Part shown: in pieces, positions 1,358 through 43,612 of the stretch
Numbering within the stretch: position 1 is the first letter of the stretch
Layout of the letters: the number at the start of each line of letters is the position of its first letter
Source: an uncultured Gemmatimonadota bacterium
GTDB taxonomy: Bacteria; JAAXHH01
Assembly (NCBI GenBank): GCA_951812955.1
Contig: OX638340.1
Location: forward strand, 2,720,001 to 2,784,000
Reading direction: 5' to 3'
Length of the DNA stretch: 64,000 nt
The notes under the pieces: generated by a model
Databases searched by the model: none
The model's input: the letters and a program-made list of their open reading frames with translations, nothing else
Told to the model about the DNA's origin: nothing
Program-made: the position numbers and the translations under genes

Positions 1358-1425
1358 GGCATGAAACGGCCGGCCACCAGTGCCGCGTATTGAGAAGCGA
1401 CCCGGCTGAAACGGCCGGCCACCAG
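1358..1425. repeat. 25-bp near-perfect direct repeat (gaaacggccggccaccagYgccgcg) present twice, each copy embedded in a short hairpin (cgcggca ... tgccgcg).
   Basis: Read directly in the intergenic region between the 391..1347 ORF and the kinase gene. One mismatch between copies. Confidence 0.6.
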
Positions 1426-1491
1426 CGCCGCGGATCACGAAGCGGCCCCTTTGACGGAACGCCGGATCGTACCCGGCCGGGACAGGCGACC

Positions 1492-2970
1492 ATGATTCCA
1501 GATGCCCGGGACAGGCTGGCACGACTCTTCCGAAACACATTCGGCCATGCACCGGCGCACATCGCCACCCTGGGCGCGGACGGATCGATACGGCGGTACT
1601 TCCGGCTGCAGGGCGAAGATCAAACCGTCATCGGCGCAGCCAACAACGACCGGCGCGAGAACACCGCCTTCCTTTTCCTGTCCCGCCACTTCCGTCGCCA
1701 CGGACTGCCGGTACCCGAGATATACGCCCAGGATCTGGACCAGGGCGTCTACCTGCAGCAGGACCTGGGCGACGAGACGCTGTTCAGCCGGTTGGCCGCC
1801 GCCCGCGCGGAGGAGGGGACGTTTCCGGAACGGTTGGCCGCCGCCCGCGCGGAGGAGGGGACGTTTCCGGAACGGTTGGCGGCGATATACCGGCGGGTTC
1901 TCGACGACCTGCCCCGTTTCCAGGTCACCGCGGCGGAGAATCTGGACTTCTCGGTCTGCTACCCAAGGAGCCGTTTTGACGGGCAATCCATCCAGTGGGA
2001 CCTGAACTACTTCAAGTACCACTTCCTGAAGCTCGTGCCTGTCGACTTTGACGAGCAGGCCCTTGAAAACGATTTCGAACGATTCACGGCGTACCTCTTG
2101 GAAGCCGATACCCGATACTTCCTGTACCGGGATTTCCAGTCCCGGAATATCATGCTGCACGATGGCCGGCCGCATTACATAGACTACCAGGGCGGGCGGC
2201 AGGGCGCCCTTCAGTACGACATCGCGTCGCTCCTTCAGGACGGCAGGGCCGACATCCCGTGGGCAACGCGGGACGAACTCCTGGATTATTATGTCGAGAA
2301 AATCGGAGCGTACGCGGCTGTTTCAAGAGCATCGTTTCTGTCCCACTACTACGGCTACGCCCTGGTCCGTCTCATGCAGGCGCTGGGCGCCTACGGGTAC
2401 CGCGGGCTGTACGAAGGCAAGTCCCACTTCCTGACCAGTATCTCCCATGGCGTTCGTAACCTCGAGGGTCTGTTGGTGCGGGCCGCCCTGCCGGACGACC
2501 TGCCTGAACTGACCCGGGCCTGGTCGCGGATCGTCGACGATCCTGCGCTTCGGCGAATGGGAGCGGTTTCCGGAGAAGGGCTGACCGTCCACCTCTGGAG
2601 TTTTTCCTATCACCTCGGCCTGCCCCGGGACCCGAGCGGAAACGGCGGGGGTTTCATCTTCGACTGCCGGATCGTGAAGAACCCCGGGCGTATTCCCGAA
2701 TACGCGGCCCTGACGGGGAAGGACGCACCGGTGGCCGTATTCCTGGACAAAAATGAGGATGCGCGGACCTTCCTGGGGGATGCGAAGACCATGGTCGACC
2801 GGGCGGTAGAACACCACCTGCGGCGCGGGTTCACCGACCTGACCGTCGCCTTCGGTTGTACCGGCGGCCAGCACCGTTCGGTATACTTCGCAGAGCGCCT
2901 GGCGGCGCACCTGTCGGAGCGTCCGGGCCTGACGGTCCGGCTGAGGCACCGGGAGCAGGAGGATTCGTGA
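1492..2970 (+). CDS. Fusion protein: APH-fold (aminoglycoside phosphotransferase-like, AmgK-like anomeric sugar kinase) N-terminal domain fused to a RapZ/YhbJ C-terminal domain.
   Basis: N-terminal part has the Brenner-type catalytic motif YRDFQSRNIMLH...IDYQG of the APH/choline-kinase fold. The last ~150 aa align with the E. coli RapZ C-terminal domain (FIFDCRIVKNPGRIP...VAVFLDKNEDARTFL...LTVAFGCTGGQHRSVYFAERLAAHL versus FVFDVRFLPNPHWDP...VAAFLDRHTEVHNFI...[25 protein letters not shown]). ORF track begins at a TTG (1390); the likely ATG start is 1492, just before MIPDARDRL. Confidence 0.7.
   Translation: MIPDARDRLARLFRNTFGHAPAHIATLGADGSIRRYFRLQGEDQTVIGAANNDRRENTAFLFLSRHFRRHGLPVPEIYAQDLDQGVYLQQDLGDETLFSRLAAARAEEGTFPERLAAARAEEGTFPERLAAIYRRVLDDLPRFQVTAAENLDFSVCYPRSRFDGQSIQWDLNYFKYHFLKLVPVDFDEQALENDFERFTAYLLEADTRYFLYRDFQSRNIMLHDGRPHYIDYQGGRQGALQYDIASLLQDGRADIPWATRDELLDYYVEKIGAYAAVSRASFLSHYYGYALVRLMQALGAYGYRGLYEGKSHFLTSISHGVRNLEGLLVRAALPDDLPELTRAWSRIVDDPALRRMGAVSGEGLTVHLWSFSYHLGLPRDPSGNGGGFIFDCRIVKNPGRIPEYAALTGKDAPVAVFLDKNEDARTFLGDAKTMVDRAVEHHLRRGFTDLTVAFGCTGGQHRSVYFAERLAAHLSERPGLTVRLRHREQEDS
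1790..1873 (+). repeat. Perfect 42-bp tandem duplication inside the kinase gene, encoding RLAAARAEEGTFPE twice in frame.
   Basis: cggttggccgccgcccgcgcggaggaggggacgtttccggaa occurs at 1790-1831 and again at 1832-1873. Confidence 0.9.
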
Positions 2971-2975
2971 AGGCC

Positions 2976-3728
2976 ATGATCCTCGCCGCGGGACTGGGTA
3001 CCCGGTTGCGGCCCCTCACTGACACCCGGCCTAAAGCCCTCGTGCCGGTGGCCGGCAGACCCATGATTCACTGGGTGATCGCGCGACTCGCCAGTCACGG
3101 CTTCACGGACATCATCATCAATGCCCATCATTTCGCGGCGCAGATCGAGACCTTCGCGGCCGCGTACAAAGGTCCGGGCTCCCCACTGACTGTTTCCGTA
3201 GAGGAGGAGATCCTGGACACGGGCGGCGGGGTGCGGAAGGCCGCGTGGTTCTTCGACCGCGAGGAGCCGTTCCTGGTGCACAACGTGGACGTGCTGACCG
3301 ACCTGGATCTATCCGGCCTGATGAACGCTCACCTGGCTTCGGATGCCCATTCGGCCTATGGGGCCCTGGTCACCTTGGCCGTGAAGAGTAGAAAAAGTTC
3401 GCGTCACCTCCTGTTCGATGAGGCGGGACGGCTGGGCGGCTGGCGTTCGGACGTTACGGGAGAGACGCGCACGGTCCGGCCGATAGCGGGTCCCGTCACC
3501 CCCGTGCCCTTCATGGGCGTCTACGTCATGTCCCCTGCCGTGTTGAGAAAGATGGCCGATCCCGGTCCCTTTTCGATCATCGACTTCTTCCTGGACCAGG
3601 CAGGTGGCGGCGCGCCGATTCGGGCCTATCGGGCTGATGATGCCAGGTGGGCGGATCTCGGAAGCGAGGACCGCATCGCGGCGGCCGAGCGGCTCTTCGG
3701 TACGGACTGGTTCGCGGAGATCGGTTAA
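2976..3728 (+). CDS. murU: Sugar-phosphate nucleotidyltransferase, MurU-like (N-acetylmuramate 1-phosphate uridylyltransferase candidate).
   Basis: N-terminal MILAAGLGTRLRPLTDTRPKALVPVAGRPMIHW is the G-x-G-T-R-L nucleotidyltransferase signature. The ATG at 2976 follows the kinase stop (2968-2970) by 5 nt. Pairing with an APH-fold kinase matches the AmgK-MurU salvage arrangement. The symbol is by context and is tentative. Confidence 0.6.
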   Translation: MILAAGLGTRLRPLTDTRPKALVPVAGRPMIHWVIARLASHGFTDIIINAHHFAAQIETFAAAYKGPGSPLTVSVEEEILDTGGGVRKAAWFFDREEPFLVHNVDVLTDLDLSGLMNAHLASDAHSAYGALVTLAVKSRKSSRHLLFDEAGRLGGWRSDVTGETRTVRPIAGPVTPVPFMGVYVMSPAVLRKMADPGPFSIIDFFLDQAGGGAPIRAYRADDARWADLGSEDRIAAAERLFGTDWFAEIG

Positions 3729-4330
3729 TCCGTTCTCCAGACGAACACATACACGCAAAGGCCAGGCTTACCCGCCATCGGTCGAAATGACTTGAAGCGC
3801 AGCGCGCCAACGGTTATCTTGGTACCGTATCGATCTTCCTATAAACACGCCCTCACCCGAAGGAGGTTTGAATTGGCTGACGCATCGTCCTCCCGCGGCG
3901 CGAGGCAGTGTCTGCGTAGTCTGCTCTATCGCGGTTGTTGCCCCCGCCGAAGTTTTACTCCTACATAACCGGCGACAGCGGGCAAATACGCGGTGAAGAC
4001 GTTTCCTTCAGGATTCGCGCTCGTTGAGCGTCTCCGGTAATCCTCGCGGAACGGTTTCTCCTCCATTATGGCCCGGACGGTCATCTTGTTCGTACCGCCC
4101 GGGGCGATGGCAACTCGTGGATATACGGAATTCCCTGCCCGAAGCCAGGCGGGAATCCTGTCCTGTAGCAGCCTTTCTCCTGCCCCGCGCGGATCGTGCA
4201 TCTATTGATCCGAGCCACGACCCGTCGCTACACGATAGCGAGTCGAGCTGCGAGAAGCGTGCAGAGCGTGTTCAATTTTCAGTGCGCAGGATATCCGCGC
4301 CGGCTCTCCGAAATCAGTAAGGTAGGTACT

Positions 4331-5722
4331 ATGTCCGGCAGAATGAATGGAAGCCCCCCCAAATTCCAGATTTACGATCTCAGGAACTACAGAAAAATAC
4401 CCCAGATTGAGCATCTCCGGGACGAGCTGAAATTCGAAATGGAAGTCGTCGCGCAGGTTCTACCGTTCCGGACCAATTCCCACGTGGTGGAGAACCTGAT
4501 CCAATGGGAGAACATCCCCGACGACCCCATGTTCCAGCTCACTTTTCCGCAGCGGGAGATGCTGTCGCCGGACCACTTCGACGCGGTGGCTGCATTGGTG
4601 AAAAAGCAGGCGGGCAAAGCGGAAATGGCGCGCACGGTGAACCGGATCCGATGGGATCTGAATCCACAGCCCGCGGGCCAACTCGAGCACAATGTCCCCA
4701 GGGAGGACAACGAGAGACTGGATGGCATGCAGCACAAGTACCGGGAGACGGTACTGTTCTTTCCATCCCAGGGACAGACCTGCCACGCATACTGCACCTT
4801 CTGCTTCCGCTGGCCCCAGTTCGTGGGGATCGATGAGCTGAAGTTCGCCAGCCGCGAGGTCGAAAGTCTCATCAGATATCTTGAGGAAAATCCCCAGGTC
4901 ACCGACGTACTTTTCACGGGCGGCGATCCCATGGTCATGCGAGCAAAGAACCTTAGCGTGTATGTCGATGCGTTGCTGAAGGCGGACCTCCCCAATCTGC
5001 ACACGATCCGAATCGGGACGAAATCGCTGGCGTACTGGCCCTACAAGTACCTTACTGACCCGGACGCGGACGACGTGCTGGCGCTCTTCGAACGGGTAAT
5101 TCGCGCCGGTAAGCACCTGGCCATCATGGCCCATTGCAGCCATCCCGCCGAACTGCAACCCGACGCGGTGGCAAAAGCGGTCGGCCGGATCCGTGGTACG
5201 GGGGCAAGAGTTTACACGCAGTCTCCCATTCTGAGGCATATCAACGACGATCCGAACACCTGGGCCGCCATGTGGCGCAAGCAGGTGGACCTGGGGATGG
5301 TTCCCTATTACATGTTCGTGGTGCGAGACACCGGCGTGCAGCGCTTCTTCGCCGTGCCGCTGGTTCGCGCGTGGGAGATCTTCCAGAACGCCTATCAGCA
5401 GGTAAGTGGGATATGCCGGACCGTGCGCGGCCCCAGCATGTCGGCCCATCCCGGGAAGATCCATGTCCTGGGCGTCAGCGAGGTCCGCGGAGAGAAGATC
5501 ATCGCCCTGCAATTCCTGCAGGGACGCAATCCCGACTGGGTCCTGCGGCCGTTCTTCGCCCGGTACGACGAAAGAGCCATCTGGCTGGACGACCTCGAGC
5601 CGGCCTTTGGCGAGGAGTCGTTTTTCTTCGAAGAAGAGTTGGCGCAGTTGTGCGCTGAGGACCTGCCCTCCGGCCAGTGGGACGTGATGGAGTCCCTGGT
5701 GCTGGAAGGCGTGGAGTTTTAG
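4331..5722 (+). CDS. KamA-family radical SAM aminomutase (lysine 2,3-aminomutase-like).
   Basis: CHAYCTFCFRW is the CxxxCxxC radical SAM motif in the KamA-type context (GQTCHAYC...). TGGDPMVM matches the KamA family. The ATG at 4331 is preceded by aaggtagg. Upstream in-frame ORF sequence from 4196 looks non-coding. Confidence 0.75.
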   Translation: MSGRMNGSPPKFQIYDLRNYRKIPQIEHLRDELKFEMEVVAQVLPFRTNSHVVENLIQWENIPDDPMFQLTFPQREMLSPDHFDAVAALVKKQAGKAEMARTVNRIRWDLNPQPAGQLEHNVPREDNERLDGMQHKYRETVLFFPSQGQTCHAYCTFCFRWPQFVGIDELKFASREVESLIRYLEENPQVTDVLFTGGDPMVMRAKNLSVYVDALLKADLPNLHTIRIGTKSLAYWPYKYLTDPDADDVLALFERVIRAGKHLAIMAHCSHPAELQPDAVAKAVGRIRGTGARVYTQSPILRHINDDPNTWAAMWRKQVDLGMVPYYMFVVRDTGVQRFFAVPLVRAWEIFQNAYQQVSGICRTVRGPSMSAHPGKIHVLGVSEVRGEKIIALQFLQGRNPDWVLRPFFARYDERAIWLDDLEPAFGEESFFFEEELAQLCAEDLPSGQWDVMESLVLEGVEF

Positions 5723-5875
5723 TGAACGGGGCAGGGGTCAGGGTACGGTACTTGATGACCTCCCTGGGATCAGCGTTTTTCGGCCACAGCCTCAGCCAGC
5801 TGTTCTTTAGCCCACTGATTAACACTCACGCCGCCCACCTCGGCCGCCTCGGCTACCGCTGCGTGGGTTTCCGGA

Positions 5876-7402
5876 TCAATCCCCCAGCCCCGCATACCGG
5901 CAGACAATCTCCACGGCCTTGACCAGGGTCTTCGCGCCGAGTACGGCGTATTCCTCGATCAGGTTGCCTTCCTGGTCGAGCGTACCCAGGCCGGGACCGA
6001 GGAACATCTTCCCGCTGTAAATCGTGGCCGGTTCGACGCCCATGTGCTCCTGGGCGAGGACGATGGGATTGGTGTTGGCCCACAGGTCTTCCAGGTTGAA
6101 GATCGGGATGCCGAAGGCGCCGTCTTTCCACGTGCGTTCGTAGTTGAGCTCGGTGCCGCCGAGCTGGTAGGTTTTCGTGAAGATCAGGTCGTCGCGGAAT
6201 CGGGAGGGTTCCATCCGGGCGAATTCCTCTACGATGATTTCGTGGAACCGGTCCACGGGATCGGTGACCAGGCGGGGACGGTCGCGGAGGACCTTCAGGT
6301 AAGCGGTCAGACCGACCAGGGTGTCCCGGCCGGGATCACTGAAGGTATAGACCGCCTTGCCGTGGGAGGACAGCTCGCCGTACCGCTGGCCGCCCAGGCC
6401 CATGCCCTTGCGGATCGGGTTTATGACCTCTTCGCGGCCAATCAGCAACCCCGACGCAGGCGCACGGCCCGGCTTGTCCATGCTGTAGGTGATGATGTCG
6501 CAGCCGATGTCCCGGGGATCCATGCCGACGATGGGAATCGATCCTCCCGTGTCCACGATGTAGGGCACGTCGTAGTCCCGGGCCACGTCGGCGAGTTTCT
6601 TCAGGAGGATCGGCGCGCCGTTCTCGTCCTGTTCGCCGAGTCCGTAGCTGGGTGTGTCGTATCCCACCGTGGCGATGCCCGTGAGCAGGGAAGCGTTCCG
6701 TTCGGCGGCCTTCTTCACGTTTCCGATGGTGCCGTCCACGTCCACCCCGGTGAGCAACGAGGTGGGATTATACCGGATGCCGTGCGGATCGTATTTCGCG
6801 CCGGCCATGGGTACGTAGAGCGTCTCGAGGTTCGCCAGGCTCTTGTTCTCGATGCCCAGTTCGCCGCCGGCGATAGTCCGGTCCACGAGAAGGTTCTTGT
6901 ACCGCGGCGGGAAGGCCCGGCCGTAGCCGCCGATCCATTCGTAGTCCTCGCCGTAAGGCATGAGCAGGCGGCCGCGGTAGATGTCGCCGTGGCGCATGGA
7001 GGGCGGAGCGCAAAGCGTCTCCAGGGTCAGGCGCAGCAGCGATTCGCAGGTGTTGGCGGCCACCGCGTCGAACTCATCGCCGTAGACGTCCTTGACGACT
7101 TCCCGCAGTTCGTCTTCGACCACCCGCACCGGGTAGGTCTTGCCGCCCCGGTTGGCTTCCACAATCGCGTCGAGAACGTAATCGGGGAGGTTGCCTGGTC
7201 TCGCCGAACTGCCGGCGTACAGGCCGATGTCCTGCCGTAGCTTCAGCGTGCCGATCTCTTCGCCGTATATCCGGGCCTCTTCGGCGATTTTACCCAAATT
7301 GTCGTAGATTGACTGGTACCACTGGAACTTGTACATGGCTGTTCTTTCTCGGATCCGCACTGCGTTGGACGAGACGGGAAGATCGTCTACGGGCGGTTTC
7401 AC
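5876..7402 (-). CDS. PLP-dependent enzyme of the SelA-like fold-type I family; function unknown.
   Basis: Long ORF with protein-like composition. YSMDKPGRAPASGLLIG resembles the SelA family S-G-D-K PLP-lysine loop. An alternative ATG start lies at 7336 (MYKFQWY). The opposite-strand ORF 6044..7240 has antisense-type composition. Confidence 0.5.
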   Translation of the reverse strand: MKPPVDDLPVSSNAVRIRERTAMYKFQWYQSIYDNLGKIAEEARIYGEEIGTLKLRQDIGLYAGSSARPGNLPDYVLDAIVEANRGGKTYPVRVVEDELREVVKDVYGDEFDAVAANTCESLLRLTLETLCAPPSMRHGDIYRGRLLMPYGEDYEWIGGYGRAFPPRYKNLLVDRTIAGGELGIENKSLANLETLYVPMAGAKYDPHGIRYNPTSLLTGVDVDGTIGNVKKAAERNASLLTGIATVGYDTPSYGLGEQDENGAPILLKKLADVARDYDVPYIVDTGGSIPIVGMDPRDIGCDIITYSMDKPGRAPASGLLIGREEVINPIRKGMGLGGQRYGELSSHGKAVYTFSDPGRDTLVGLTAYLKVLRDRPRLVTDPVDRFHEIIVEEFARMEPSRFRDDLIFTKTYQLGGTELNYERTWKDGAFGIPIFNLEDLWANTNPIVLAQEHMGVEPATIYSGKMFLGPGLGTLDQEGNLIEEYAVLGAKTLVKAVEIVCRYAGLGD

Positions 7403-7420
7403 GCCGGACCGTCGTGGGGA

Positions 7421-8575
7421 TCAGGGTATGCTGGAAATCACTTCGAGGGCCCGTTCCACGTCGGACACCCGGTTGTACAAGTGGGGCGAGAATCGGATCA
7501 CGTCGCCGCGCAACGCGACCATGACGCCGGACTGCTTCAGATGCTTCGCCACGCTGGAGATGTCGTGGCCGGGAAAACGGGCGGTAACAATGGCCGAGCG
7601 TTCGGCGGCGTTCCGGGGGGAAGTGACCTCGGCGCCGATATCCGCCAGGCCGCTGATGAGGTGGTCGGCGAGGACCTGGTTATGGGCGAAGATCTCGTCG
7701 ATACCCGTGTCCACGAGGAATCCGATCGACTTCGCGAACCCGCCGGCCAACCCATAGGCCATGGTGCTGAACTCGAACCGGGACGCGTCCTCCGGGTAAT
7801 CCGGCGGATCGGTGCTGATGTCCCAGATGTCGACCTGGCTCCGAAAGCCCACCAGGCCGGGTTCGAGGCTCGTGGCGAGATGCGGAGCGAGGTACATGAC
7901 GGCGATACCGAAAGGACCGCACAGCCACTTGTATGCTCCGGCGGCAACGGCGTCGATGCCCATGCCGGGTGCGTCGATGGGGACGGCGCCCGCGGACTGC
8001 GTGGCGTCCACGACGAGCAGGGCTCCGTGCCGGTGCGCGATCTCGGCAAAAGCGGCGAGGTCCCAGCGCTGGCCGCTGCGGAATTCGACGTGGGACAGGG
8101 CCACTACGGCCGTGTTGTCGTCAATGAGGTCCCGGACGCGGCCGGGATCGACAGTACCTCCCCCCCGCGCGTGCGCCAGCCGGATCTCACAGCCCGTGTG
8201 GTTGGCGACCCGTCTCCAGGGGTAGACCGAAGCGGGGAAGGATACGTCCGTGCTGACGACGTTGGTTTCCGGTCCGGGCATGACCGCCCAGGCGAGGGAA
8301 CTCAGGAGCTCGGTGGTGCTGGACCCGGCGGCGATGTCGGTCGGCGACGCGTTGAAGAGCCGGGCGGCCTGCCGGTGCAACTCATCGAATACCGTGGCTT
8401 CGGCTTCTTCGTCGAAGTGGTTGCTGCCGTTCTCGGCGACGTCCCGGTACCATTCGGTGATCGCGGACGCGGCCGGACGGTACATGGGCGTTACGTTCGC
8501 CGCGTTGATGTAGGTGCAGGTCTGTGCTACGGGAAACTCATCGACCGGAACCAGCGGATCGAGGGACTGTGGCAT
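7421..8575 (-). CDS. Class V aminotransferase/desulfurase-family PLP enzyme.
   Basis: AGAYKWLCGPFGIAVMY places the PLP lysine in class-V context. Length is 384 aa. The large plus-strand ORF 7481..9835 has antisense composition. Confidence 0.75.
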   Translation of the reverse strand: MPQSLDPLVPVDEFPVAQTCTYINAANVTPMYRPAASAITEWYRDVAENGSNHFDEEAEATVFDELHRQAARLFNASPTDIAAGSSTTELLSSLAWAVMPGPETNVVSTDVSFPASVYPWRRVANHTGCEIRLAHARGGGTVDPGRVRDLIDDNTAVVALSHVEFRSGQRWDLAAFAEIAHRHGALLVVDATQSAGAVPIDAPGMGIDAVAAGAYKWLCGPFGIAVMYLAPHLATSLEPGLVGFRSQVDIWDISTDPPDYPEDASRFEFSTMAYGLAGGFAKSIGFLVDTGIDEIFAHNQVLADHLISGLADIGAEVTSPRNAAERSAIVTARFPGHDISSVAKHLKQSGVMVALRGDVIRFSPHLYNRVSDVERALEVISSIP

Positions 8576-8593
8576 GGTAAGGCCTCCCGGCGA

Positions 8594-9772
8594 TCAACCG
8601 GCGGCCGCGTCGCGCTCGTTCACTGTTCCCGCGTCCTCTTCCTCGGCGACCTGGCGGAGCAGGCTGGCAATCCGGCGCAGTCCCTCGTTCAGGTAGTCGG
8701 ACGGCAGGCCGTAGCTGATGCGGAGATGGTTAGGTATGCCGAAGTAGTCCCCTGGACCGATGAGCACCGACTTCTCCTGGATCAGTCGATTCGCCAGTGT
8801 CGCGGAATCGGCCTTCAGGTTGTACCGGACGAAGGAAACGGCCGTTGCCTGGGGCGGAACGAGACTCAGGATGTCCGAGTTGTCGCTGATCCAGCCGTGG
8901 TAGTTCTCCCATCCCCGCCGGATATAGCCCCGCGTCCTTTCGAAGATGGCCTGCCGCACGTCCGGGCGCAGCGCCAGCGGCGCGAGGAAATGGTTGGACA
9001 ACTTGGCGGTGCTCAAAGTCAGGTACTCGTGGCGCTTCCAAAGCTCCCTGAGCAGGTCTTCAGGACCCACGAGCCAGCCGATCCGCAGGCCGGGCATGCC
9101 GAAGGACTTGGACATGCTGCCCGCCGCGATGACCCGGTCGTACCGACCGTAGAAGGTGGGCGAAACCTCCTCCCGCTCCCGCTCGGACCCGGCGTAGATC
9201 TCGTCGGCGAGCAGGTAGGCGCCGCTGCGTTCGGCCGCGCGGACGACGGCGTCCATTTCGGATTCCGTCAGGATCTGCCCCGTCGGGTTGTTTGGGTTGC
9301 AGATGGAGATCAGTTTCGTTTCGTCAGATACGGCGGACTCCAGGCTGTCGGTATCGAGCGCCCATCCCCGGTCGGGATCGAGGGTGAACGTCCGGCGGAT
9401 GGCGCCCATGTTGTGCGCGAGCCCCCAACTCTGGAGGTAGCATGGCACCTGGACCGCCACCTCGCCCCCGCCTTCCAGCAGCGTCTGGAACGTGATGTAA
9501 TTGGCCTCGATGCATCCGATGGTCACCAGTACGTTATCGGCCGTGGCGCCGGGGTAGTACTGGGCAATGGCCTCCCGCAGTTCAGGCGAACCGTTGGCGT
9601 ATCCGTAGCCCAGTTCGGTATCCAGCATGCGGTCCAGGATATCGGGATCGTGGGCGATCAGTTCCCTGACCTTGACCGGGTGCGCGCCGCTCTCGGACAG
9701 GTTGTATTCCACGACCTGTTCCCAGTCCGACATGATGCGTTCCAGGTCAAAAGTCTGGAAGGTCGATGCCAT
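8594..9772 (-). CDS. Class I/II aminotransferase.
   Basis: SMSKSFGMPGLRIGW is the class-I aminotransferase PLP-lysine motif. ICNPNNPTG is the typical NPTG box. Confidence 0.8.
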   Translation of the reverse strand: MASTFQTFDLERIMSDWEQVVEYNLSESGAHPVKVRELIAHDPDILDRMLDTELGYGYANGSPELREAIAQYYPGATADNVLVTIGCIEANYITFQTLLEGGGEVAVQVPCYLQSWGLAHNMGAIRRTFTLDPDRGWALDTDSLESAVSDETKLISICNPNNPTGQILTESEMDAVVRAAERSGAYLLADEIYAGSEREREEVSPTFYGRYDRVIAAGSMSKSFGMPGLRIGWLVGPEDLLRELWKRHEYLTLSTAKLSNHFLAPLALRPDVRQAIFERTRGYIRRGWENYHGWISDNSDILSLVPPQATAVSFVRYNLKADSATLANRLIQEKSVLIGPGDYFGIPNHLRISYGLPSDYLNEGLRRIASLLRQVAEEEDAGTVNERDAAAG

Positions 9773-9927
9773 GTGCTTGCTCCTTGGTTTGATGGGCCGT
9801 CAGTGTTCGGTGCGCCGGCCATGTCGGCCTGCTAATCCGGTCAGCCTGGTCAGTGTGGCCGGCCAAGTCAGCCTGGCCGGCCGTGTCAGCCCGCCAGTCC
9901 GGCCGCTCGGTCATTCCGTCCGTCTGT

Positions 9928-10875
9928 CTACTTTACGGCGTGGTATACGGCCTTGGATATCTGGATATCCTGTACGGCGACGCCCGTCGAATCGGCGATC
10001 GTGATCTGGTCGTCGGAAGTGCGGCCGAGGGAAGGATTCTGAATCACGTTCCCGAGCTCGACCACCTTGTCCTCGGTTATGGCGCCCGCCATCATCGCCT
10101 GGGCGATCTCGCCCCGCAACCTGCACTGGGGGATGCTGTCCGCCACGACCACGTCGGCCTTTACGAGCACGCCTGGATCCAACTCGATCTTGTCCGGCGT
10201 ATCCGATCCCATGGCGGTGATGTGGGTCCCGGGCCGGACCTGCTCGGCGGTCAGCAGCGGCGACAGGGACGGGGTGGACATGATGATGAGATTGCTTGTC
10301 GCCGCCACCGCGCCGGCGTCATCCGTTGTCTCGACGGAGTATCCCTGGGCTTCCATGTCACGCATGTAGGACGCCTTGCTCTCGTCGGAACGTCCCCACG
10401 CGATCACGTCCGTGCAGTCGACGACACCCTTCAGGTACTCAACCTGCATGCGTGCCTGCAGGCCCGTACCGAAAACGCCGATGCGGCTGACGTTCTTCGG
10501 CGCGAGGACCTTGGCCACGACTGGCCCCATGGCGGCCGTACGTACGTTGGTGAGGTAGCCCTGGTCGAGCAGGAACGCCACCGGCTGGCCCGTTCTCTGA
10601 TTGAAGACCAGCATCATGCCCTGGACGCGGGGGAGGCCCACGTTCGGATTATCGCTGAAACCGGAGGCCAGCTTGATAACGTAATAGTCATCGTTGTTGA
10701 TCGCGCCGTACTTGATATGCACGTTCCCTGGAGGATCCTCGAAGTGCATCTCGCCGACGGGCGGCACCTGCACATTTCCCTGCGAATATGCGACGAAACC
10801 GTCCTCTATATCCTGAATGACGTCAATGCCCTCTACGGCTTCCTTGATTCGGTCCAGTTCGACGATGAGCGGCAT
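9928..10875 (-). CDS. Ornithine cyclodeaminase/mu-crystallin family NAD-dependent enzyme.
   Basis: 315 aa. The Rossmann segment IGVFGTGLQARMQVEYL and overall OCD-family layout are present. Co-directional with the upstream aminotransferases. Confidence 0.75.
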   Translation of the reverse strand: MPLIVELDRIKEAVEGIDVIQDIEDGFVAYSQGNVQVPPVGEMHFEDPPGNVHIKYGAINNDDYYVIKLASGFSDNPNVGLPRVQGMMLVFNQRTGQPVAFLLDQGYLTNVRTAAMGPVVAKVLAPKNVSRIGVFGTGLQARMQVEYLKGVVDCTDVIAWGRSDESKASYMRDMEAQGYSVETTDDAGAVAATSNLIIMSTPSLSPLLTAEQVRPGTHITAMGSDTPDKIELDPGVLVKADVVVADSIPQCRLRGEIAQAMMAGAITEDKVVELGNVIQNPSLGRTSDDQITIADSTGVAVQDIQISKAVYHAVK

Positions 10876-22794: not shown

Positions 22795-23868
22795 TCAGCC
22801 ACCCATATCGGAGAACGTCCCGGCCTCCGGCAGTCCCGCCACGGTGCAGTTCACGCCTGCGACACGATTCGCGAGACGGGTTGCCCGGGCGGGGTCCTTC
22901 GAAGCCAGGTACTCGGTTACGAAGCCGGCGGCAAAGGCGTCCCCGCAGCCGGTGGTGTCGACCACGTCACGGACCGGCTCCGAAGGGATGGCAAAGGCCT
23001 TCGATTCGCGGTCTTCCCGGTAAACCGTGACAGGACCGAGGGGCCCCCGGGTAATAACGCATACCGAGGGACCGAGAGAAATCACGGACCGTCCGAAGGC
23101 GATGAAATCATCGACCGATTCCAACGTGCCGCCTGGTCCGCCTGGTCCAGTCGCATCAAACCGTCCGCGCAGTCCCCCCGGTTCGCCCGCATCCAAGGAT
23201 CCGCCCGTTCCGCCCGTTCCGCCTGTTTCCCCCGGTTCGCCCGCATCCAGCGATCCGCCCGTTCCGCCTGGCGCCGCCGCTTCGTTACCTGTACCGGCCA
23301 GCAGACGAGCCTCCACTTCGTTCATCTGAACGACGTCGAACATCTCGATCCATCGCCGCCAGTCCGTGGGTGCCCGTCTTCGCCGGTAGCCCTCCGCGTC
23401 GATACCCAGACAGAGGTTGTGCACATCCAGGTAACGCAACCCGGAGGCGCTGCCCCGTATCGTCTCCATGGTCTTCAGGCTGATATCGTCGCCTACGATG
23501 AAATTCACCAGCAGGGCGTCGAGATCAAGGAAAGGTTCGATCTGTTCGAGGGGAATGGGTCCGACATGGTTGGTCAGCTGCTCGACTTTCTCCATATTTT
23601 CGTCGTAACGTATCCGGTTTCGGCTGGTACCCGATGGGGAAAGGGAGATTCCGCGGGTGCTCACGGCGGGACGTGGATCCAGGATGGCGCGCATGGCGCC
23701 GTAACGCTCCGCTCCGATCCGGCTGATGGGATACAGTTCGTCCCCTTCGCTCACGAGGTCTGCCATTACGGTGGTGTTGTACAATATGCCGCCGAGGTCT
23801 TGAATCTGACGGCCGCCGGACATGAAGATGGTGTCGTGGTTGATGAGGCCTATGATGCCAACGCGCAT
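22795..23868 (-). CDS. PfkB/ribokinase-family sugar kinase with an internal Gly/Thr-rich repeat insertion; possibly an HldA/HldE-domain-I-like heptose-7-phosphate kinase, given the adjacent heptosyltransferase.
   Basis: DTTGCGDAFAAGF is the PfkB signature near the C-terminus. The inserted segment is AAAPGGTGGSLDAGEPGETGGTGGTGGSLDAGEPGG. Confidence 0.75.
   Translation of the reverse strand: MRVGIIGLINHDTIFMSGGRQIQDLGGILYNTTVMADLVSEGDELYPISRIGAERYGAMRAILDPRPAVSTRGISLSPSGTSRNRIRYDENMEKVEQLTNHVGPIPLEQIEPFLDLDALLVNFIVGDDISLKTMETIRGSASGLRYLDVHNLCLGIDAEGYRRRRAPTDWRRWIEMFDVVQMNEVEARLLAGTGNEAAAPGGTGGSLDAGEPGETGGTGGTGGSLDAGEPGGLRGRFDATGPGGPGGTLESVDDFIAFGRSVISLGPSVCVITRGPLGPVTVYREDRESKAFAIPSEPVRDVVDTTGCGDAFAAGFVTEYLASKDPARATRLANRVAGVNCTVAGLPEAGTFSDMGG
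23150..23290. repeat. Imperfect tandem DNA repeat (~60-bp unit, ccggttcgcccgcatccaRSgatccgcccgttccgcc...) encoding the Gly-rich insert of the PfkB kinase.
   Basis: Read directly. Two near-identical units. Confidence 0.6.
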
Positions 23869-23880
23869 GTGTTTTCCGAA

Positions 23881-24918
23881 TCAGTCTGTGACAGGGGGTA
23901 CAGGTTTCCCGAGATAGACGGCCACGGCTTCGACCACCTGCTCCGCGGTGATGCCGCGCATGCAGTCGTGGGTCCCGATGGGACAGCGATTTCCGCCATG
24001 GGAACTGCACGGCCGGCAGTCCAGTGGCGTCTCGACGACCCGGTGCCCGTGTCCGTAAGGGACAAAGCCAAATGCGGGTACCGTCGGTCCGAAGACGGCT
24101 ACAACCGGCGTGTTCATGGCGGCGGCCACGTGGCCCATTCCGGTGTCGTTCGATACCACGGCGGAGCAACGGGCGGCGAGCGCTGCCGATTGCAGCAGGG
24201 TCAGCAGTCCGGCCGTATTTATCGGATCGACGCCGGACTCGGCGGCGATTTCGGCGCAAAGTGGCCGGTCCTCGGCACTGCCGAAGAGCACGGCACGGTA
24301 CCCGTATGTTTCGGCGAGACGGCGGATCAACTTCGCGAAACGGCCAGGCAGCCATTGCTTGGTCGCCCAGACCGATCCGGGACTCACCCCGCAAATATGT
24401 TCGGACGGTGCAATACCCGATTCCCGCATCAGCGAATCCACCCTTTCCCTGTCGTGGTCATCCGGGTAAAGGGCGGGGTGTATCCCGGCCGTATCCACCT
24501 CCCATGAAGCGAGAAGAGAGAGGTTACGCTCGACTTCGTGGACGGCCCGGTAGTGGACCCGGTCCGTAAGGAGCATCCTGCCCGCGCTCCGATCGAAACC
24601 CACCCGGACGGGTACGCCGGCCAGGTAAGCCAGCAGCGCGCTACGGAACGACCGGTGGGGGATCAACGCCGCGTCGAAGGAAGCGCCACGCAACCCGTGG
24701 GCAAGGCGAAGCAGTTCCAGGGGTCCTTTTTGCAGGCCTTTCTTGTCGTAAATGACGATGTCGTCGACGTGGGGATTGTTCCGAAGCAGATTCGCCGTTT
24801 CGGGCCGCACTACGGCTCCGACGCGGCCGGCGCCCAGCCGCGTCCTGGCCGCTTCGATCAAAGGGGTGGACAGCACGAGGTCGCCCACGAATGCGGTTTG
24901 TATGACGAGAATGCTCAA
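23881..24918 (-). CDS. Glycosyltransferase family 9 (ADP-heptose:LPS heptosyltransferase-like).
   Basis: Starts MSILVIQTAFVGDLVLSTPLIEA. A GT9 C-terminal nucleotide-binding region is present (NDTGMGHVAAAMNTPVVAVFG). Confidence 0.8.
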   Translation of the reverse strand: MSILVIQTAFVGDLVLSTPLIEAARTRLGAGRVGAVVRPETANLLRNNPHVDDIVIYDKKGLQKGPLELLRLAHGLRGASFDAALIPHRSFRSALLAYLAGVPVRVGFDRSAGRMLLTDRVHYRAVHEVERNLSLLASWEVDTAGIHPALYPDDHDRERVDSLMRESGIAPSEHICGVSPGSVWATKQWLPGRFAKLIRRLAETYGYRAVLFGSAEDRPLCAEIAAESGVDPINTAGLLTLLQSAALAARCSAVVSNDTGMGHVAAAMNTPVVAVFGPTVPAFGFVPYGHGHRVVETPLDCRPCSSHGGNRCPIGTHDCMRGITAEQVVEAVAVYLGKPVPPVTD

Positions 24919-24962
24919 CCCGTTGGGATCCCTGGTCGAAACGCGGACTCAAAGGCGCGCGA

Positions 24963-25628
24963 TTACTTCCTGAGCGAATTCAACAACGCCTGGAACTCGC
25001 CTTCCGCGCTCAGGACGGTCTTTTCCGGTCCGGTGAGTTTGAGGAATACGTTGCCTTCCGGCGCTTCGATGATGGCGCCGAGCATCTTGTAGCCCGGTTT
25101 TTTCGCGGTGCCGGACTGGAACATGGGGCCCATGGAGGCGAGGTACGTACCCGCCAGGGACACCGTGGTCACGGCCAGATCGTTTATGTTCGACTTCCGC
25201 TCGGCCGGTGAGGACGGTCCACCGGATTCCGTCTCGAACTGGTCCTTCCATCGCTGCAGGTTCAGGTCAACGCTGCCTCCCTGTCCCTGGCCGAAAAAGA
25301 ACACGGCGCATTCACCGGGTTCGTCGTCCCCTTGGGCCATCGGAATCAGATAGGTCGCCACGCGCATCATTCGGGGAGGTTGCGGTTCCCATCGCGAGGG
25401 CACGGTCCAGGCGACGCCCGCGGCTTCGCCCGACGTCGTATTCTCCTGGGCATTCATCGTCGCGGGGACGTCCGCTCTCTCAGCGACGGCGGGAATCGTA
25501 GCCGGTGGTGGGGGATCGGCCGGCGGTTGCTGCGACCGCGGATCGGATTGTTCTCCACCGTTTCCGCAGGCCGTTGAGATTCCGAACAGCATAACGGCGG
25601 TAATAGCAACGAGGGGATGGCGTGGCAT
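24963..25628 (-). CDS. Hypothetical lipoprotein.
   Basis: ATG at 25626-25628 gives MPRHPLVAITAVMLFGISTAC (lipobox ISTAC), followed by a Pro-rich linker. Confidence 0.5.
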   Translation of the reverse strand: MPRHPLVAITAVMLFGISTACGNGGEQSDPRSQQPPADPPPPATIPAVAERADVPATMNAQENTTSGEAAGVAWTVPSRWEPQPPRMMRVATYLIPMAQGDDEPGECAVFFFGQGQGGSVDLNLQRWKDQFETESGGPSSPAERKSNINDLAVTTVSLAGTYLASMGPMFQSGTAKKPGYKMLGAIIEAPEGNVFLKLTGPEKTVLSAEGEFQALLNSLRK

Positions 25629-25642
25629 GTAACAGGTCTCCT

Positions 25643-26548
25643 TTACTGTACGTGATTTGAATCCGCGGGCGCCGGGGTCTTCCACCGCCGGTGTACCCAG
25701 AACCAGTGATCGGGATAATCCAGGATGTACCGGGCCAGCACGTCCGTGTACGCCTGTGTAATCCGTACGATATCGGCCGGTTCATCACCGGTCGAAATCG
25801 CTTCGATCGGGGTTTCGAAGCAGACCCGGTGGCGTTCCGGGCCGGATCGAATGATGAAACAGGGCACGATGGGCGCGCCCGTGCGCAGCGCGAAGAGTGC
25901 CGGTCCCTGGTAGGTGGACGCCCCTGATCCCAGAAACTCGACGAACACGCCGCTGGCGCCCGCGTCCTGGTCCGCAAGCAGCCCGACACATTCGTTTCGC
26001 CGCAGTGCCCTGAAGATCGCAGGCGGCGCGGAATCCATCGGGGTCACCGCCATGCCCAGTCGCTCGCGCCCCTCGTGCACCAGGCGGTCGACGGCGGGAT
26101 TGTGCAGCTTCTTCGCGACGACGGTAATGGGATAGCCGAGAAAGGCGACCGTCGCGCCAAGTAACTCCCAGTAACCGAAATGGCCGGTGACCAGGATGAC
26201 CCCGCGCCCCCCCTGGCGGGCACGTGCGACGTGTTCTTCTCCCGAGATCGCAAGCTGGTCCCGCAGGTCCGGCGTCCTCCCCGCGAGCAAGCGGGCGTGT
26301 TCCACGGCCGTCCGGCCCAATTGACGGTATACAGACCGGGCCGTGGCCTGGCGCCTGTCGCCATCCCCGGTTTCGCCGTAGATTCGGACCAGGTGCTCCA
26401 TGACCATCTTCTTCCGTATGCCGGTCACGTGAAAGACCAGGTCTCCCAGGATATCACCCACCCGCGTCGCCCGGACAGGAGACAACCGCCTTGTCAGCGA
26501 CATCAACAGCCGGAGTCCCGCGTATTCGGCCAGGTGCGAGAGTCTCAT
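25643..26548 (-). CDS. Lipid A biosynthesis acyltransferase (LpxL/HtrB lysophospholipid acyltransferase family).
   Basis: VTGHFGYWE is the HX4D/E acyltransferase motif of the LpxL family. Length and hydrophobic N-terminus fit. Confidence 0.7.
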   Translation of the reverse strand: MRLSHLAEYAGLRLLMSLTRRLSPVRATRVGDILGDLVFHVTGIRKKMVMEHLVRIYGETGDGDRRQATARSVYRQLGRTAVEHARLLAGRTPDLRDQLAISGEEHVARARQGGRGVILVTGHFGYWELLGATVAFLGYPITVVAKKLHNPAVDRLVHEGRERLGMAVTPMDSAPPAIFRALRRNECVGLLADQDAGASGVFVEFLGSGASTYQGPALFALRTGAPIVPCFIIRSGPERHRVCFETPIEAISTGDEPADIVRITQAYTDVLARYILDYPDHWFWVHRRWKTPAPADSNHVQ

Positions 26549-37211: not shown

Positions 37212-40200
37212 TCAGGCTCGCTTCTGGCGAACTCCAGGTGCGATCAGGCGGTAGAGCGCGGGGGTTACGAACAGGACGAGAACCGTGGATATTGCAAGGC
37301 CGCTGAGGCCGGTGTAGGACAGGCTGGTCCAGAGATCCCGCGTGGAGGGATGTCCGGTGATGAGCAGCGGTGTGAGCCCCACGAGCGTCGTCAGGGACGT
37401 GATCAGGATGGGACGCAGGCGCTGTCCGGCCGCGGTTATGATCGCCTCATCGAGGAGCATGCCGCTTCGCTGAAGGCGGGCCATGCAGTCCACGAGCAGG
37501 ATCGCGTTGTTGACCACGATGCCGATCATGAAGACGGTGCCGAGATAGGCGCCGCGGTCGAAACTCAGATCGAAATACCAGAAAACAAGGAAAATGCCGG
37601 TCAGCCCCATGGGAACCGTCATCAGAACGACCAGGGCTCGACGGAACGATTCGAACAGGGCCGAGGTAATCAGTAAAACAAGCGCGACGGCCAAGCCTAG
37701 GGCGAAGTTCATTTCACCTCGGTCAGCCTGATCGAAATCCGACCAGTTTGGCACGTCGATGCGGTAGCCCGGCGGTAGATCGACCGACGCGAGAAATGAT
37801 CGGCGGTAGCGGTCGGCCAGGCGGATAGTTCCGACGAACTCATAAGATATCCATCGCTCGTACTGTTGCTCGCTGCGCAGAATGTCCGTCGAAACGCGCT
37901 TGAATGCCAGTACGCCGGCGTCCCCGGCGTTAATTCGGCGATCCGCGCCGCCTAGCGGGATGCGTTCGAAGCCGGTGGTTTGCTCCTTGCGGGCGACAAG
38001 CATTCGATAGGGCACGCGACGACCCTCGATCAGGAGTTCGCCGTCCGGCTGGTGTCGGTCGGTGTACGGGAACAACGCCGTGCTCAAGTCGTTCAGTCTC
38101 ATGCCGGCCCGCGCCAAGACCCGTTGCGACGGTTTCAACTGTAGCTCGTAGTATGGACCGCCGCTCCCGAACCCCCCACGGGGCGAATGGGTGATTTCGA
38201 CGTTACGCACGCGGCGGTGTCTGCCCAGTTTCAAGGCGAGGCGCTCGGCGTGATTCCGCAGGTCGTCGAAATTGTACCCCCGAAGCCGGTAGTTGATAGA
38301 AACGGCCCTTTCGCCACCCGTTGAAAACCCCTGGCCGTAACCGTAAACGCCGATATCCAACCCTCCGAACCGGGTGGCCATGTTCTCCATCTCCGCTTCC
38401 ATGGCGTAGGGCAATGGCGACCGGGCGGTCCTGTCGATGAAGAGGGTGTGCACTCTGGCCCGCGTTTCCTGTACCGTTGCGGTCACCTGGACGCCTTTGC
38501 CCCCCACCGCCAGTGCATATCGTTCGAAAGCTACCGCCACCGAATCCACGGTGGCGGTTTCCATCCCCGGGGGGCCATATATGACGACATCGATATAGGT
38601 GTAGGCGCCGCCCCAGGAGAACGACGGTCCTTTCCACACGTCTGTAATGAAGAGATACACGCTGAGACCGAAGCCGGTCACGATAGCGACCGCGATCGGC
38701 CATCGCCACCGGATCATTCGAGCGACGACGCCTTTGTACCACCGGCCGATGCGCGTTGATTTCCGCGATCCGGCCTGCAAAGTGGCACCTCGGTCCAGGA
38801 GGCGCCCGATCACGGGCACCCAGATGCCGGCGACTGCCACGGAAGCCAGGAGCGTCAGTCCGAGACCGAGCGCGAAGGGACCGATGTGTTGCTTCAACTC
38901 GTTTGAGAGATAGATGATGGGGACGAGGGCGACGACGGTCGTCAGCGTCGTCGCTGCGACGGGTATCAACATTTCCGTCGTGCCCTGCACCGTCGCACTG
39001 TCTCGATCCTCGCCTTCCTCGCGTCGACGTCGGATGTTCTCATACACGACCACCGCGTTGTCCACGAGTATACCGAAAGCCAGGGCGAGACCCGATATGG
39101 TCAACAGATCGAGACCCAATCCGAGTGCCTTGAAGCAGATCATCGCGCCAAGCGCGGAGAGGGCAATGGTGGAGAGGAGTATGACAACCGTCCGCAACTG
39201 ACGCAAAAACAGCAGCAGTAACAGGACGATAGCGATCAGGGCGACGGACACGCGCAGGGCGATGTCCCGCAATGCCAGGCGCACGTCGTCGCTGCGGTCG
39301 ACGATCAACGACAGGACGACGCCCGAAGGCAATAGATCGCCCAGGGTCTCCATTTGATTTTTTACGCGGTCGGCCACGTTGAGCATGTTGGTACCGGGTT
39401 GCCTGGCGATCTCTACGGTGATCGCCGGCAGCCCGTTCACCCGGGACACGCCCTGGGGAGTCGAGAGGGTCCACCGCGTCTCGGCTAGATCGCCAAGACG
39501 CAGGACGCGATCGCCGTCCGAGGTAACGGGCAGTCGGGCCAGGTCGTGTATCCCGACCGCCAAGGGCGCCGTCCACAAAGGGACCGACGCGCCACGTCGA
39601 CGGAGGGTGCCGGCGGCGTGGGATTCGACGCCCAGGCGCAGGGCCCTGTGGAAATCCGCAGGAGACAAGCCGGTATTTTCCATGCGGCTCGCGTCGAGCA
39701 GCAAGTGCAGTTCCTCTTCTCTGCCTCCGATGACCTCGACGTCCGAAACGCCATCGACGGCCAGCAGCGCAGGGCGGATATCCTCCAGCGCCAGTCGACG
39801 TAGCGCATGATCGGTCACAGGACCGGACAAACGATAGCTCATGAAACCATCCAGATCTCGGAAAATCTCGGGCGGTGCCTCGGATACGCGCGGCCGAACG
39901 TGGGGTGGCAGGTCTGGACGCAGGACGGCAAGCCGGTCCACGACGAGGGCGCGCGTGACGGCGACAGGAGCAGCCGGGTCGCAGCCCGCCTGAACGCGCG
40001 CGTTTCCTTCCCTGGAAACAGAGCGGACTTCGACGATGCCGGGAACGGAGGCCAACTCCGCTTCAATAGGCGCCGTCACGTGCTTGACGACGGCTTCGGA
40101 AGAAGCGCCGGGCCAGTCCGCCGAGATGACGAGGGTTGGGTAGTCTATGTCGGGCTGCAACGACAGGGGCAGTTGCGCTAAGGAAGCGACGCCCAGCGCC

Positions 40201-40268: not shown

Positions 40269-40274
40269 GGACGG

Positions 40275-43376: not shown

Positions 43377-43612
43377 GATCGCTCAGGTATAGTGGCCGTC
43401 CGCGATACGATAGACCGCGATTCGGGGGTTGGGCTCGCCGTCCTCAACGGGCGCCATATCGACCCGTACATTTCGTCGTCGAGATCAGGCGGCGTGTCGC
43501 GTACCCACTCCAGGTTGGAATCCCGCGCGGTGGCGGGGTCGGAAGATACAACCAGAAGGGCGAAGATCATCACGGGGATAACGAGTTTCAACACGTTGTC
43601 TCCTCTCGTCAC
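43373..43612 (-). CDS. Possible small (79 aa) secreted/membrane protein between the MFP and RND genes.
   Basis: A GTG start overlaps the MFP stop (GTGA), and its stop overlaps the RND start (ATGA). N-terminal hydrophobic stretch VLKLVIPVMIFALLVV. It could equally be a chance ORF in high-GC DNA. Confidence 0.25.
   Translation of the reverse strand: MTRGDNVLKLVIPVMIFALLVVSSDPATARDSNLEWVRDTPPDLDDEMYGSIWRPLRTASPTPESRSIVSRTATIPERS

Follow-up and report, generated by a model that had tools for sequence, protein, structure and literature searches.

Positions 1492-3728 of the window, that is, the whole 64,000-nt stretch of DNA analysed here (contig OX638340.1, positions 2,720,001-2,784,000, forward strand, to which all the window positions below refer), harbor two overlapping genes, coding for an AmgK-like kinase and for a MurU-like nucleotidyltransferase, respectively; the former enzyme carries a RapZ-type domain at its C-terminal end. 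Our reading, to which we assign a probability of roughly 55%, is that the two genes represent a translationally coupled AmgK/MurU-type pair for amino-sugar salvage, and that the RapZ-type module of the kinase binds a ligand and modulates or assists the enzyme, rather than serving as an RNA adaptor. Judging from homology, the amino sugar would most likely be N-acetylmuramic acid (MurNAc) and/or N-acetylglucosamine (GlcNAc). The features on which this reading is based are the following:

1492..2970, + strand: coding sequence of the AmgK-like APH-fold kinase with the RapZ-type C-terminal domain, 492 aa; continuous open reading frame (ORF) with Pfam APH and PapZ_C matches, stop codon TGA at 2968-2970.
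1492..2526, + strand: APH-fold kinase domain, residues 1-345 (Pfam APH and NCBIfam AmgK models; PDB entry 3csv as the sole APH-fold hit of the family profile and as the top Foldseek hit).
1789..1880, + strand: perfect, in-frame tandem duplication of 42 bp, 2.2 copies, within the kinase domain (Tandem Repeats Finder, 100% matches).
2125..2148, + strand: catalytic loop YRDFQSRN, residues 212-219, with catalytic Asp214 and Asn219, aligned with HRDFHAQN of 3csv.
2179..2196, + strand: metal-binding motif IDYQGG, residues 230-235, with Asp231, aligned with IDFQDA of 3csv.
2527..2577, + strand: poorly conserved interdomain linker, residues 346-362.
2578..2961, + strand: RapZ-type C-terminal domain, residues 363-490.
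2854..2883, + strand: pocket loop GCTGGQHRSV, residues 455-464, equivalent to the sulphate/malonate (proposed glucosamine-6-phosphate, GlcN6P) pocket C247-T248-G249-H252-R253 of E. coli RapZ.
2967..3728, + strand: coding sequence of the MurU-like minimal sugar-1-phosphate nucleotidyltransferase, starting at GTG 2967 (253 aa) or ATG 2976 (250 aa), identified through Pfam, NCBIfam and PDB matches.

The kinase gene lies in a single uninterrupted ORF (1390..2970, + strand), in which the start is the ATG at 1492, conserved among the homologues, and the predicted protein has 492 residues; full-length homologues of 474-480 aa share the same Met start. Pfam recognizes the APH domain (PF01636) at residues 29-268 with an E-value of 3e-8, and the RapZ C-terminal domain (PapZ_C, PF22740) at residues 365-489 with an E-value of 6.5e-33 and a score of 113.9 bits against a cut-off of 27. 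The 42-bp duplication adds 14 residues (RLAAARAEEGTFPE twice), and the protein is therefore 492 aa long instead of the usual 478. The closest relative (L001/P0001) shares the duplication and P0002 has a diverged version of it, whereas L002 (93% identical), the other relatives and all the 478-aa homologues lack it; furthermore, it coincides with residues 110-121, the sole low-confidence segment of the AlphaFold2 model of the whole fused protein (predicted local distance difference test, pLDDT, 90.1; predicted template modelling score, pTM, 0.81). The mean pairwise identity within the family is 61% for the C-terminal domain, 58% for the kinase and 23% for the linker, and the positions conserved in at least 98% of the members are 34 out of 128 in the C-terminal domain and 68 out of 326 in the kinase domain; the constraint on the C-terminal domain is at least equal to that on the kinase domain.

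The distribution of the fusion was checked through two protein searches, seeded with the window protein and with a Bacteroidaceae homologue (at least 8000 candidates each), through an exhaustive HMMER scan of 1.84 billion representatives at 50% identity (threshold E ≤ 1e-30), and through a locus scan of one genome per GTDB species. From the protein searches, 240 proteins from five data sources were listed; nearly all the matches listed in both searches embed PF01636 together with PF22740 in 470-480 aa, with identities of 50-95% (window seed) and 61-87% (Bacteroidaceae seed). The HMMER scan retrieved 806 proteins, the best 150 of which are almost all full-length two-domain proteins. The locus scan retrieved 326 loci, and the locus results given here and below refer to the best 80 of them; the kinase and RapZ-type parts share one frame in 80 out of 80. 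These loci belong to Gemmatimonadota, Latescibacterota, Bacteroidales, Saprospiraceae, Calditrichota, Ignavibacteriales and "Ca. Carthagonibacter", plus one Planctomycetota and one Akkermansiaceae metagenome-assembled genome (MAG), and Zixibacteria, Caldithrix and Terriglobia are found among the named proteins with the fusion. The nearest relatives (80-95% identity) are Gemmatimonadota/Latescibacterota MAGs, whose isolate names suggest sponge hosts. The fusion is ancient and widespread, and the fused form is the standard one for this kinase in the Fibrobacterota-Chlorobiota-Bacteroidota (FCB) lineage and in some other phyla; the original prediction, which had called it unusual, does not stand if the word is taken to mean rare. 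The window protein is a typical member of the family and not a one-off.

The idea that two genes had been artificially joined, either by a frameshift or sequencing error, which the same prediction had named as a possible refutation, or through chimeric assembly, has a negligible chance of being right. Nothing was found in its favor, and it is ruled out by the single frame of all the 80 fetched loci, by nearly all the 240 listed proteins and by the 50%-identity representatives, and the confident two-domain AlphaFold2 model also speaks against it.

Members of the family bear database names such as "phosphotransferase" or "aminoglycoside/choline kinase family phosphotransferase" and, once, "RNase adapter RapZ"; the matches listed from the Bacteroidaceae-seeded search include only unnamed or generically named proteins. 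The protein recorded as an RNase adapter (P0062, NCBI MFN8006446.1, from a Terriglobia MAG) is a full-length APH + RapZ_C protein, and its name is probably a carry-over from the C-terminal domain alone.

As for the kinase domain, the motifs YRDFQSRN and IDYQGG are invariant in the 52 family members that were aligned. The only NCBIfam kinase models matched by the window kinase are the two AmgK ones, with E-values of 3.3e-17 and 3.2e-15, even though the scores fall short of the equivalog cut-offs (62.6 bits vs 550 for NF045759 and 56.2 vs 500 for NF045698). In the PDB, the N-terminal part of the window protein finds the APH-fold protein 3csv with an E-value of 3e-20; a profile built on the same 52 members reached this structure as the sole APH-fold chain in the PDB at E ≤ 1e-3 (1.6e-25), and Foldseek ranked it first when probed with the AlphaFold model. 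A 169-aa piece of 3csv scores, in turn, 171.6 bits on the AmgK model NF045698; therefore, the nearest solved structure is of the AmgK type. According to these sequence comparisons, the kinase is closer to the AmgK type than to other APH-fold kinases, and the domain is an intact, distant member of the AmgK branch, whose substrate is deduced from homology.

The downstream gene overlaps the kinase stop codon (TGA, 2968-2970) by four nucleotides (GTGA) if translation begins at GTG 2967, in which case it opens with MKAMILAAGLGTRLRPLT... (MKAMILAAG...); the same 4-nt overlap was found in independent gene calls on two other contigs (L082 and L086). The product matches NTP_transferase (PF00483, 9.1e-21), carries the N-terminal G-x-G-x-R-x-R-P-L-T motif (MILAAGLGTRLRPLT) and, with its 250-253 aa, is a minimal enzyme lacking a C-terminal beta-helix domain. 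Its top two NCBIfam models are both MurU (2.6e-32 and 1.5e-29), with scores below the respective equivalog cut-offs (112.5 bits vs 250 for NF045761 and 103.1 vs 370 for NF045697). Likewise, its top two PDB matches are MurU structures, namely that of P. putida (4y7t, 6.9e-24) and the MurNAc-1-P uridylyltransferase 8hhd/9smv (2.2e-20); the C-terminal half is only weakly similar, the second matching stretch having an i-Evalue of 0.27.

In about 32 of the 80 loci, the gene that comes directly after the kinase is MurU-like; these loci belong to Gemmatimonadota, Latescibacterota, Calditrichota, Ignavibacteriales, Planctomycetota, Akkermansiaceae and some Bacteroidota. The comparison of the gene neighborhoods revealed no other neighbor conserved across phyla, all the others being different. 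Moreover, eight of the best 150 of the 806 representatives (P0287, P0328, P0342, P0350, P0362, P0385, P0264 and P0363) are triple fusions of 714-816 aa with the order APH-RapZ_C-NTP_transferase, and one triple fusion (L087, 4001-6145) was confirmed on its contig as a single ORF. These "Rosetta-stone" proteins are the strongest evidence obtained here that the kinase, the RapZ-type domain and the transferase act as one unit.

In E. coli, GlcN6P is sensed by RapZ, a protein with YvcJ as a homologue. To compare the C-terminal domain with RapZ, the functionally tested residues of the latter (PMC9841335 and PMC7073468) were mapped on an alignment of 235 family members. The loop GCTGGQHRSV pairs with the equivalent motif of E. 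coli RapZ, its pocket pattern C-T-G-G-x-H-R-S being invariant in 235 out of 235 sequences, and VAVFLD corresponds to VAAFLD. Five of the six pocket residues considered (H190, T248, G249, H252, R253 and C247) are retained: C247, T248, G249, H252 and R253 correspond to C456, T457, G458, H461 and R462, each 100% invariant, as is D391, the counterpart of D182 at the dimer interface of RapZ. The loop also fits a C-x5-R-S pattern and, in the model, is flanked by a strand (449-456) and a helix (462-475). In E. coli RapZ, the pocket residues and C247 are essential, and C247S inactivates the protein (PMC9841335); GlcN6P is bound by the RapZ C-terminal domain alone, and the pocket is kept across bacteria, including distant homologues (PMC7073468).

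The RNA-binding features are a different matter. In RapZ, mutation of the four tail residues K270, K281, R282 and K283 abolishes RNA binding; in the window protein, the first three correspond to Gly or Leu (the two alignments disagree), Asp and Ser, K283 has no counterpart, and none of these residues is conserved in the family; in the groove loop, K194 is mostly Glu, R196 is variable and H190 is Gly. The median isoelectric point (pI) of the domain is 7.2 in the family vs 9.5 in E. coli. This pattern (pocket kept, RNA residues lost) agrees with the literature on the RapZ C-terminal domain, according to which the RNA-binding region and GlmY/GlmZ are limited to Enterobacteriaceae (PMC7073468). 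Since the pocket is invariant, the RNA residues are lost, the pI is lower and the domain is well conserved, the feature under selection is, as judged from conservation, the metabolite/anion pocket and not RNA binding.

It might still be proposed that the domain acts as in E. coli, binding a small RNA and/or recruiting RNase E, and thereby couples salvage at the post-transcriptional level. The homology to the RapZ C-terminal domain, the one NCBI record naming a member as an RNase adapter, and the fact that in E. coli the pocket residues touch the RNA backbone (PMC9841335) are in line with this; the loss of the basic residues, the restricted distribution of the RNA partners and the absence of both the RapZ N-terminal domain and the tetramer scaffold make it very improbable. 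Both an RNA adaptor function and an artefact are effectively excluded.

The match to the full-length RapZ model NF003828 covers only profile positions 157-277 of 278 (100.8 bits vs a cut-off of 244), the N-terminal Walker-A (P-loop, adenylate-kinase-like) domain of RapZ is missing, and the N-terminal 345 residues adopt the APH fold. The hidden Markov model (HMM) and structure searches both back the identity of the C-terminal part, which scores above the PF22740 gathering threshold and has the RapZ C-terminal fold. While the C-terminal domain is a genuine RapZ_C, the fused protein cannot be called a RapZ, given that it has neither the Walker-A N-terminal domain nor the RNA-binding tail. What the original prediction had observed, namely that an AmgK-like APH kinase ends in a RapZ C-terminal domain, that a MurU-like nucleotidyltransferase comes next, and that the GCTGG-x-HRSV and FLD motifs are present, is correct in every particular: the Pfam, NCBIfam and PDB matches, the alignment with E. 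coli RapZ, the HMM support, the spread across many phyla and the predicted structure all bear it out. Its idea that the added module binds sugar phosphates and has ties with amino-sugar and cell-wall metabolism is supported, while the GlmZ-type RNA binding that it mentioned for E. coli finds no support in this family.

The AmgK/MurU route described for Pseudomonas can be taken as the model for the kinase and transferase steps, and the following scheme can be depicted. The APH-fold domain would use ATP to phosphorylate MurNAc and/or GlcNAc at C1, as AmgK does; the MurU-like enzyme would then combine the sugar-1-phosphate with UTP to yield the UDP-sugar for peptidoglycan synthesis. The ligand of the RapZ-type domain might be an amino-sugar phosphate or some metabolite akin to it (a GlcN6P-like compound, MurNAc-P or a UDP-sugar) and, once bound, it would tune or assist the salvage kinase, so that the salvage flux would be tied to the amino-sugar pool. 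The same domain probably also dimerises the enzyme.

Several points weigh against this reading. The scores of the two proteins stay well under the equivalog cut-offs, and the assignment of the sugar is therefore tentative; the transferase also scores 80 bits on a mannose-1-phosphate guanylyltransferase model; Pfam scans of 30 further ORFs of the window revealed none of anmK, nagZ, ampG, murQ and mupP; and most of the Bacteroidales and Saprospiraceae loci lack a MurU-like gene within 6 kb. No member of the fused family is tied to an experiment in this analysis. As for the domain itself, H190 of the RapZ pocket is Gly399 in every member, the adjacent Arg400 is nearly invariant and is counted, together with R445 (N236 in RapZ) and C392 (V183 in RapZ, a second Cys), among the additional invariant residues; the ligand may, therefore, differ from GlcN6P. 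Lastly, no result obtained here separates a regulatory, a catalytic and a purely structural role of the domain.

The low scores and the lack of peptidoglycan-recycling genes in the window would also fit a second rival, in which the pair activates another sugar, destined for lipopolysaccharide (LPS), capsule or protein glycosylation, and the likeness to AmgK/MurU reflects homology at the subfamily level only; the transferase matches AglF, HddC and archaeal GlmU models in addition to the guanylyltransferase one, and an LPS-core cluster lies 19 kb off. We consider this quite improbable, since the AmgK and MurU models are on top for each protein independently, the sole APH-fold structure reached by the family profile is of the AmgK type, the two best structures for the transferase are those of MurU, and the RapZ-type domain points towards amino-sugar phosphates. 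Moreover, AmgK/MurU orthologues, which may or may not be of the fused architecture, have been reported in Bacteroides and shown to work in Tannerella (PMC8054146 and PMC10941766). If the AmgK of Bacteroides or T. forsythia were of the fused form, the kinase function of the family would already have been demonstrated, and only the extra domain would be left to explain.

The main rival concerns this extra domain, which might itself be an enzyme, a phosphatase or phosphotransferase that relies on a Cys residue and has an amino-sugar phosphate as its substrate, for instance a MurNAc-6-P phosphatase replacing MupP, an enzyme of the haloacid dehalogenase (HAD) superfamily. The fused or triple-fused protein would then carry out consecutive steps, from MurNAc-6-P to MurNAc and MurNAc-1-P (and on to UDP-MurNAc), and the triple fusions would be three-step assembly lines. 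We regard it as unlikely, even if it accounts for the invariant C-x5-R-S loop lying within a strand-loop-helix unit; the Pseudomonas pathway, furthermore, requires MupP just ahead of AmgK. Inactivation of E. coli RapZ by C247S is likewise in its favor, as is the structural paper on RapZ, which reported that the pocket contained a "chemically transformed" GlcN6P product and raised a catalytic role of the thiol (PMC9841335). A broader version, to which we give a rather low chance, sees in the RapZ-type domain a catalytic module of ancient origin, working on amino-sugar phosphates and equipped with a Cys-x5-Arg phosphate loop, which would provide a built-in MurNAc-6-P/GlcNAc-6-P phosphatase or phosphotransfer step. 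This, in turn, would imply that the kinase, and the triple fusions with MurU, form a compact line from recycled sugar phosphate to UDP-MurNAc, that a primordial activity as an enzyme lies behind the essential Cys247 and the "chemically transformed" ligand of RapZ, and that the enterobacterial RapZ gained RNA binding later.

The interest of the fusion lies in its bearing on the primordial function of RapZ and YvcJ. The family is very large, crosses phyla and includes abundant gut and rumen Bacteroidales, and it joins an AmgK-like kinase to the RapZ metabolite pocket without the RNA-binding features; it represents independent evolutionary evidence for the RapZ C-terminal domain as a small-molecule module of amino-sugar metabolism, and a simple, RNA-free system in which the ligand or activity of the domain could be found. 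The literature search retrieved no paper describing an AmgK-like kinase/RapZ_C fusion or studying the added domain. What is new is a fusion for which we found no published study; the architecture as such is already visible in domain databases and common in nature. Through the salvage route itself, bacteria can bypass MurA/MurB; the route lies behind intrinsic fosfomycin resistance and MurNAc auxotrophy, and is the workhorse of metabolic peptidoglycan labelling.

Regarding the context of the pair, neither a second RapZ_C or close APH copy (HMM search on the six-frame translation) nor a stand-alone rapZ (HMM search) was found in the window. Directly upstream of the kinase, at 391-1347, there is a gene for a phytase-like/SdiA-regulated beta-propeller-type protein with an N-terminal hydrophobic segment, which the 17 closest loci having it share at 82-95% identity and which is not conserved beyond that clade. 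The 144-nt gap between this gene and the kinase start embeds a 45-bp unit present twice (1357-1448, 85% match, core GAAACGGCCGGCCACCAG[C/T]GCCGCG) and nowhere else in the window; a single copy occupies the same place in L002. No sigma-70-like site was found in the kinase leader, and no promoter-like signal or unusual RNA fold in the 45-bp repeat; the fold of the 148-nt leader is no better than that of shuffled sequences (z -0.98). On the contig of one of the Bacteroidales (L085), a bactofilin gene (7652-7996) ends 4 nt before the fused kinase, and in L084 (9613-9999) and L086 (7603-8004), a Caldithrix and another contig, an ORF of 128-133 aa without Pfam match borders on the start of the kinase or overlaps it; these neighbors may point to a link with the cell-shape machinery.

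The Pfam search on the 30 further ORFs revealed aminotransferases, ornithine cyclodeaminase, MoxR/DUF58, LPS-core genes, RND pumps, a histidine kinase and a sulfatase. A gene block conserved with the nearest relatives (4196-10875) includes a 508-aa protein whose radical-SAM match is weak and below threshold, a second ORF of 508 aa (5876-7402, - strand) without Pfam match, class V and class I/II aminotransferases and an ornithine cyclodeaminase/mu-crystallin homologue, and looks like an uncharacterised amino-acid conversion cluster. The LPS-core-type genes at 22795-26548 (PfkB-family sugar kinase, GT9 heptosyltransferase and lipid A acyltransferase), unlinked to the kinase/transferase pair, show a Gram-negative-type envelope. 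At 37212-44820, there is a tandem pair of AcrB-type RND transporter genes, with products of 1018 and 1033 aa, beside a gene for an HlyD-type membrane-fusion protein.

The unit, known here from its sequence, can be likened to AmgK-MurU, even though neither protein enters those families by the NCBI equivalog cut-offs. AmgK of P. putida (PP_0405) is said to be the anomeric MurNAc/GlcNAc kinase described by Gisin and co-workers in 2013, and we take 3csv to be a representative of the alphaproteobacterial-type AmgK. The window kinase shares with AmgK the APH fold, the RDF-x-x-x-N catalytic loop, the ID-x-Q metal motif and the position directly upstream of a MurU-like gene, and the NCBIfam, PDB sequence and fold searches all place it nearest to the AmgK family. 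On the other hand, it is about 130 aa longer, owing to the RapZ-type domain, it is only 22% identical to 3csv in the structural alignment, it reaches 56-63 bits against cut-offs of 500-550, and it falls in a separate clade of FCB-lineage bacteria. Similarly, the transferase resembles MurU (P. putida PP_0406, PDB 4y7t) in its size (about 250 aa), in its sugar-1-phosphate nucleotidyltransferase type, in the N-terminal LAAGxGxRxRPLT motif, in being the best NCBIfam and PDB match and in the identical gene order after the kinase; it differs in the score (112.5 bits vs 250) and in the weakly similar C-terminal half.

Compared to RapZ/YhbJ and YvcJ, an unrelated APH-fold kinase stands in place of the Walker-A kinase-like N-terminal domain, the basic RNA-binding tail is missing, and H190, W191, N236 and V183 have become Gly, Arg, Arg and Cys, respectively, invariant in the fused family, which also has an extra Gly-rich insertion (S/G-N/H-G-G-G) ahead of the FDCR strand. 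The fructose-6-phosphate-binding subdomain of phosphofructokinase (PFK) is different, with an identity of 12% and a sugar pocket that is not the conserved RapZ pocket. Lastly, bifunctional kinase/nucleotidyltransferase proteins exist in Bacteroides Fkp (fucokinase/GDP-fucose pyrophosphorylase) and in HldE; we know of no bifunctional example with a RapZ-type domain between the two catalytic domains. The kinase folds of these proteins differ from that of the fused family, and in the window the transferase is encoded by a separate, overlapping gene; the triple fusions of the relatives, like Fkp and HldE, unite an anomeric kinase and a pyrophosphorylase in one polypeptide.

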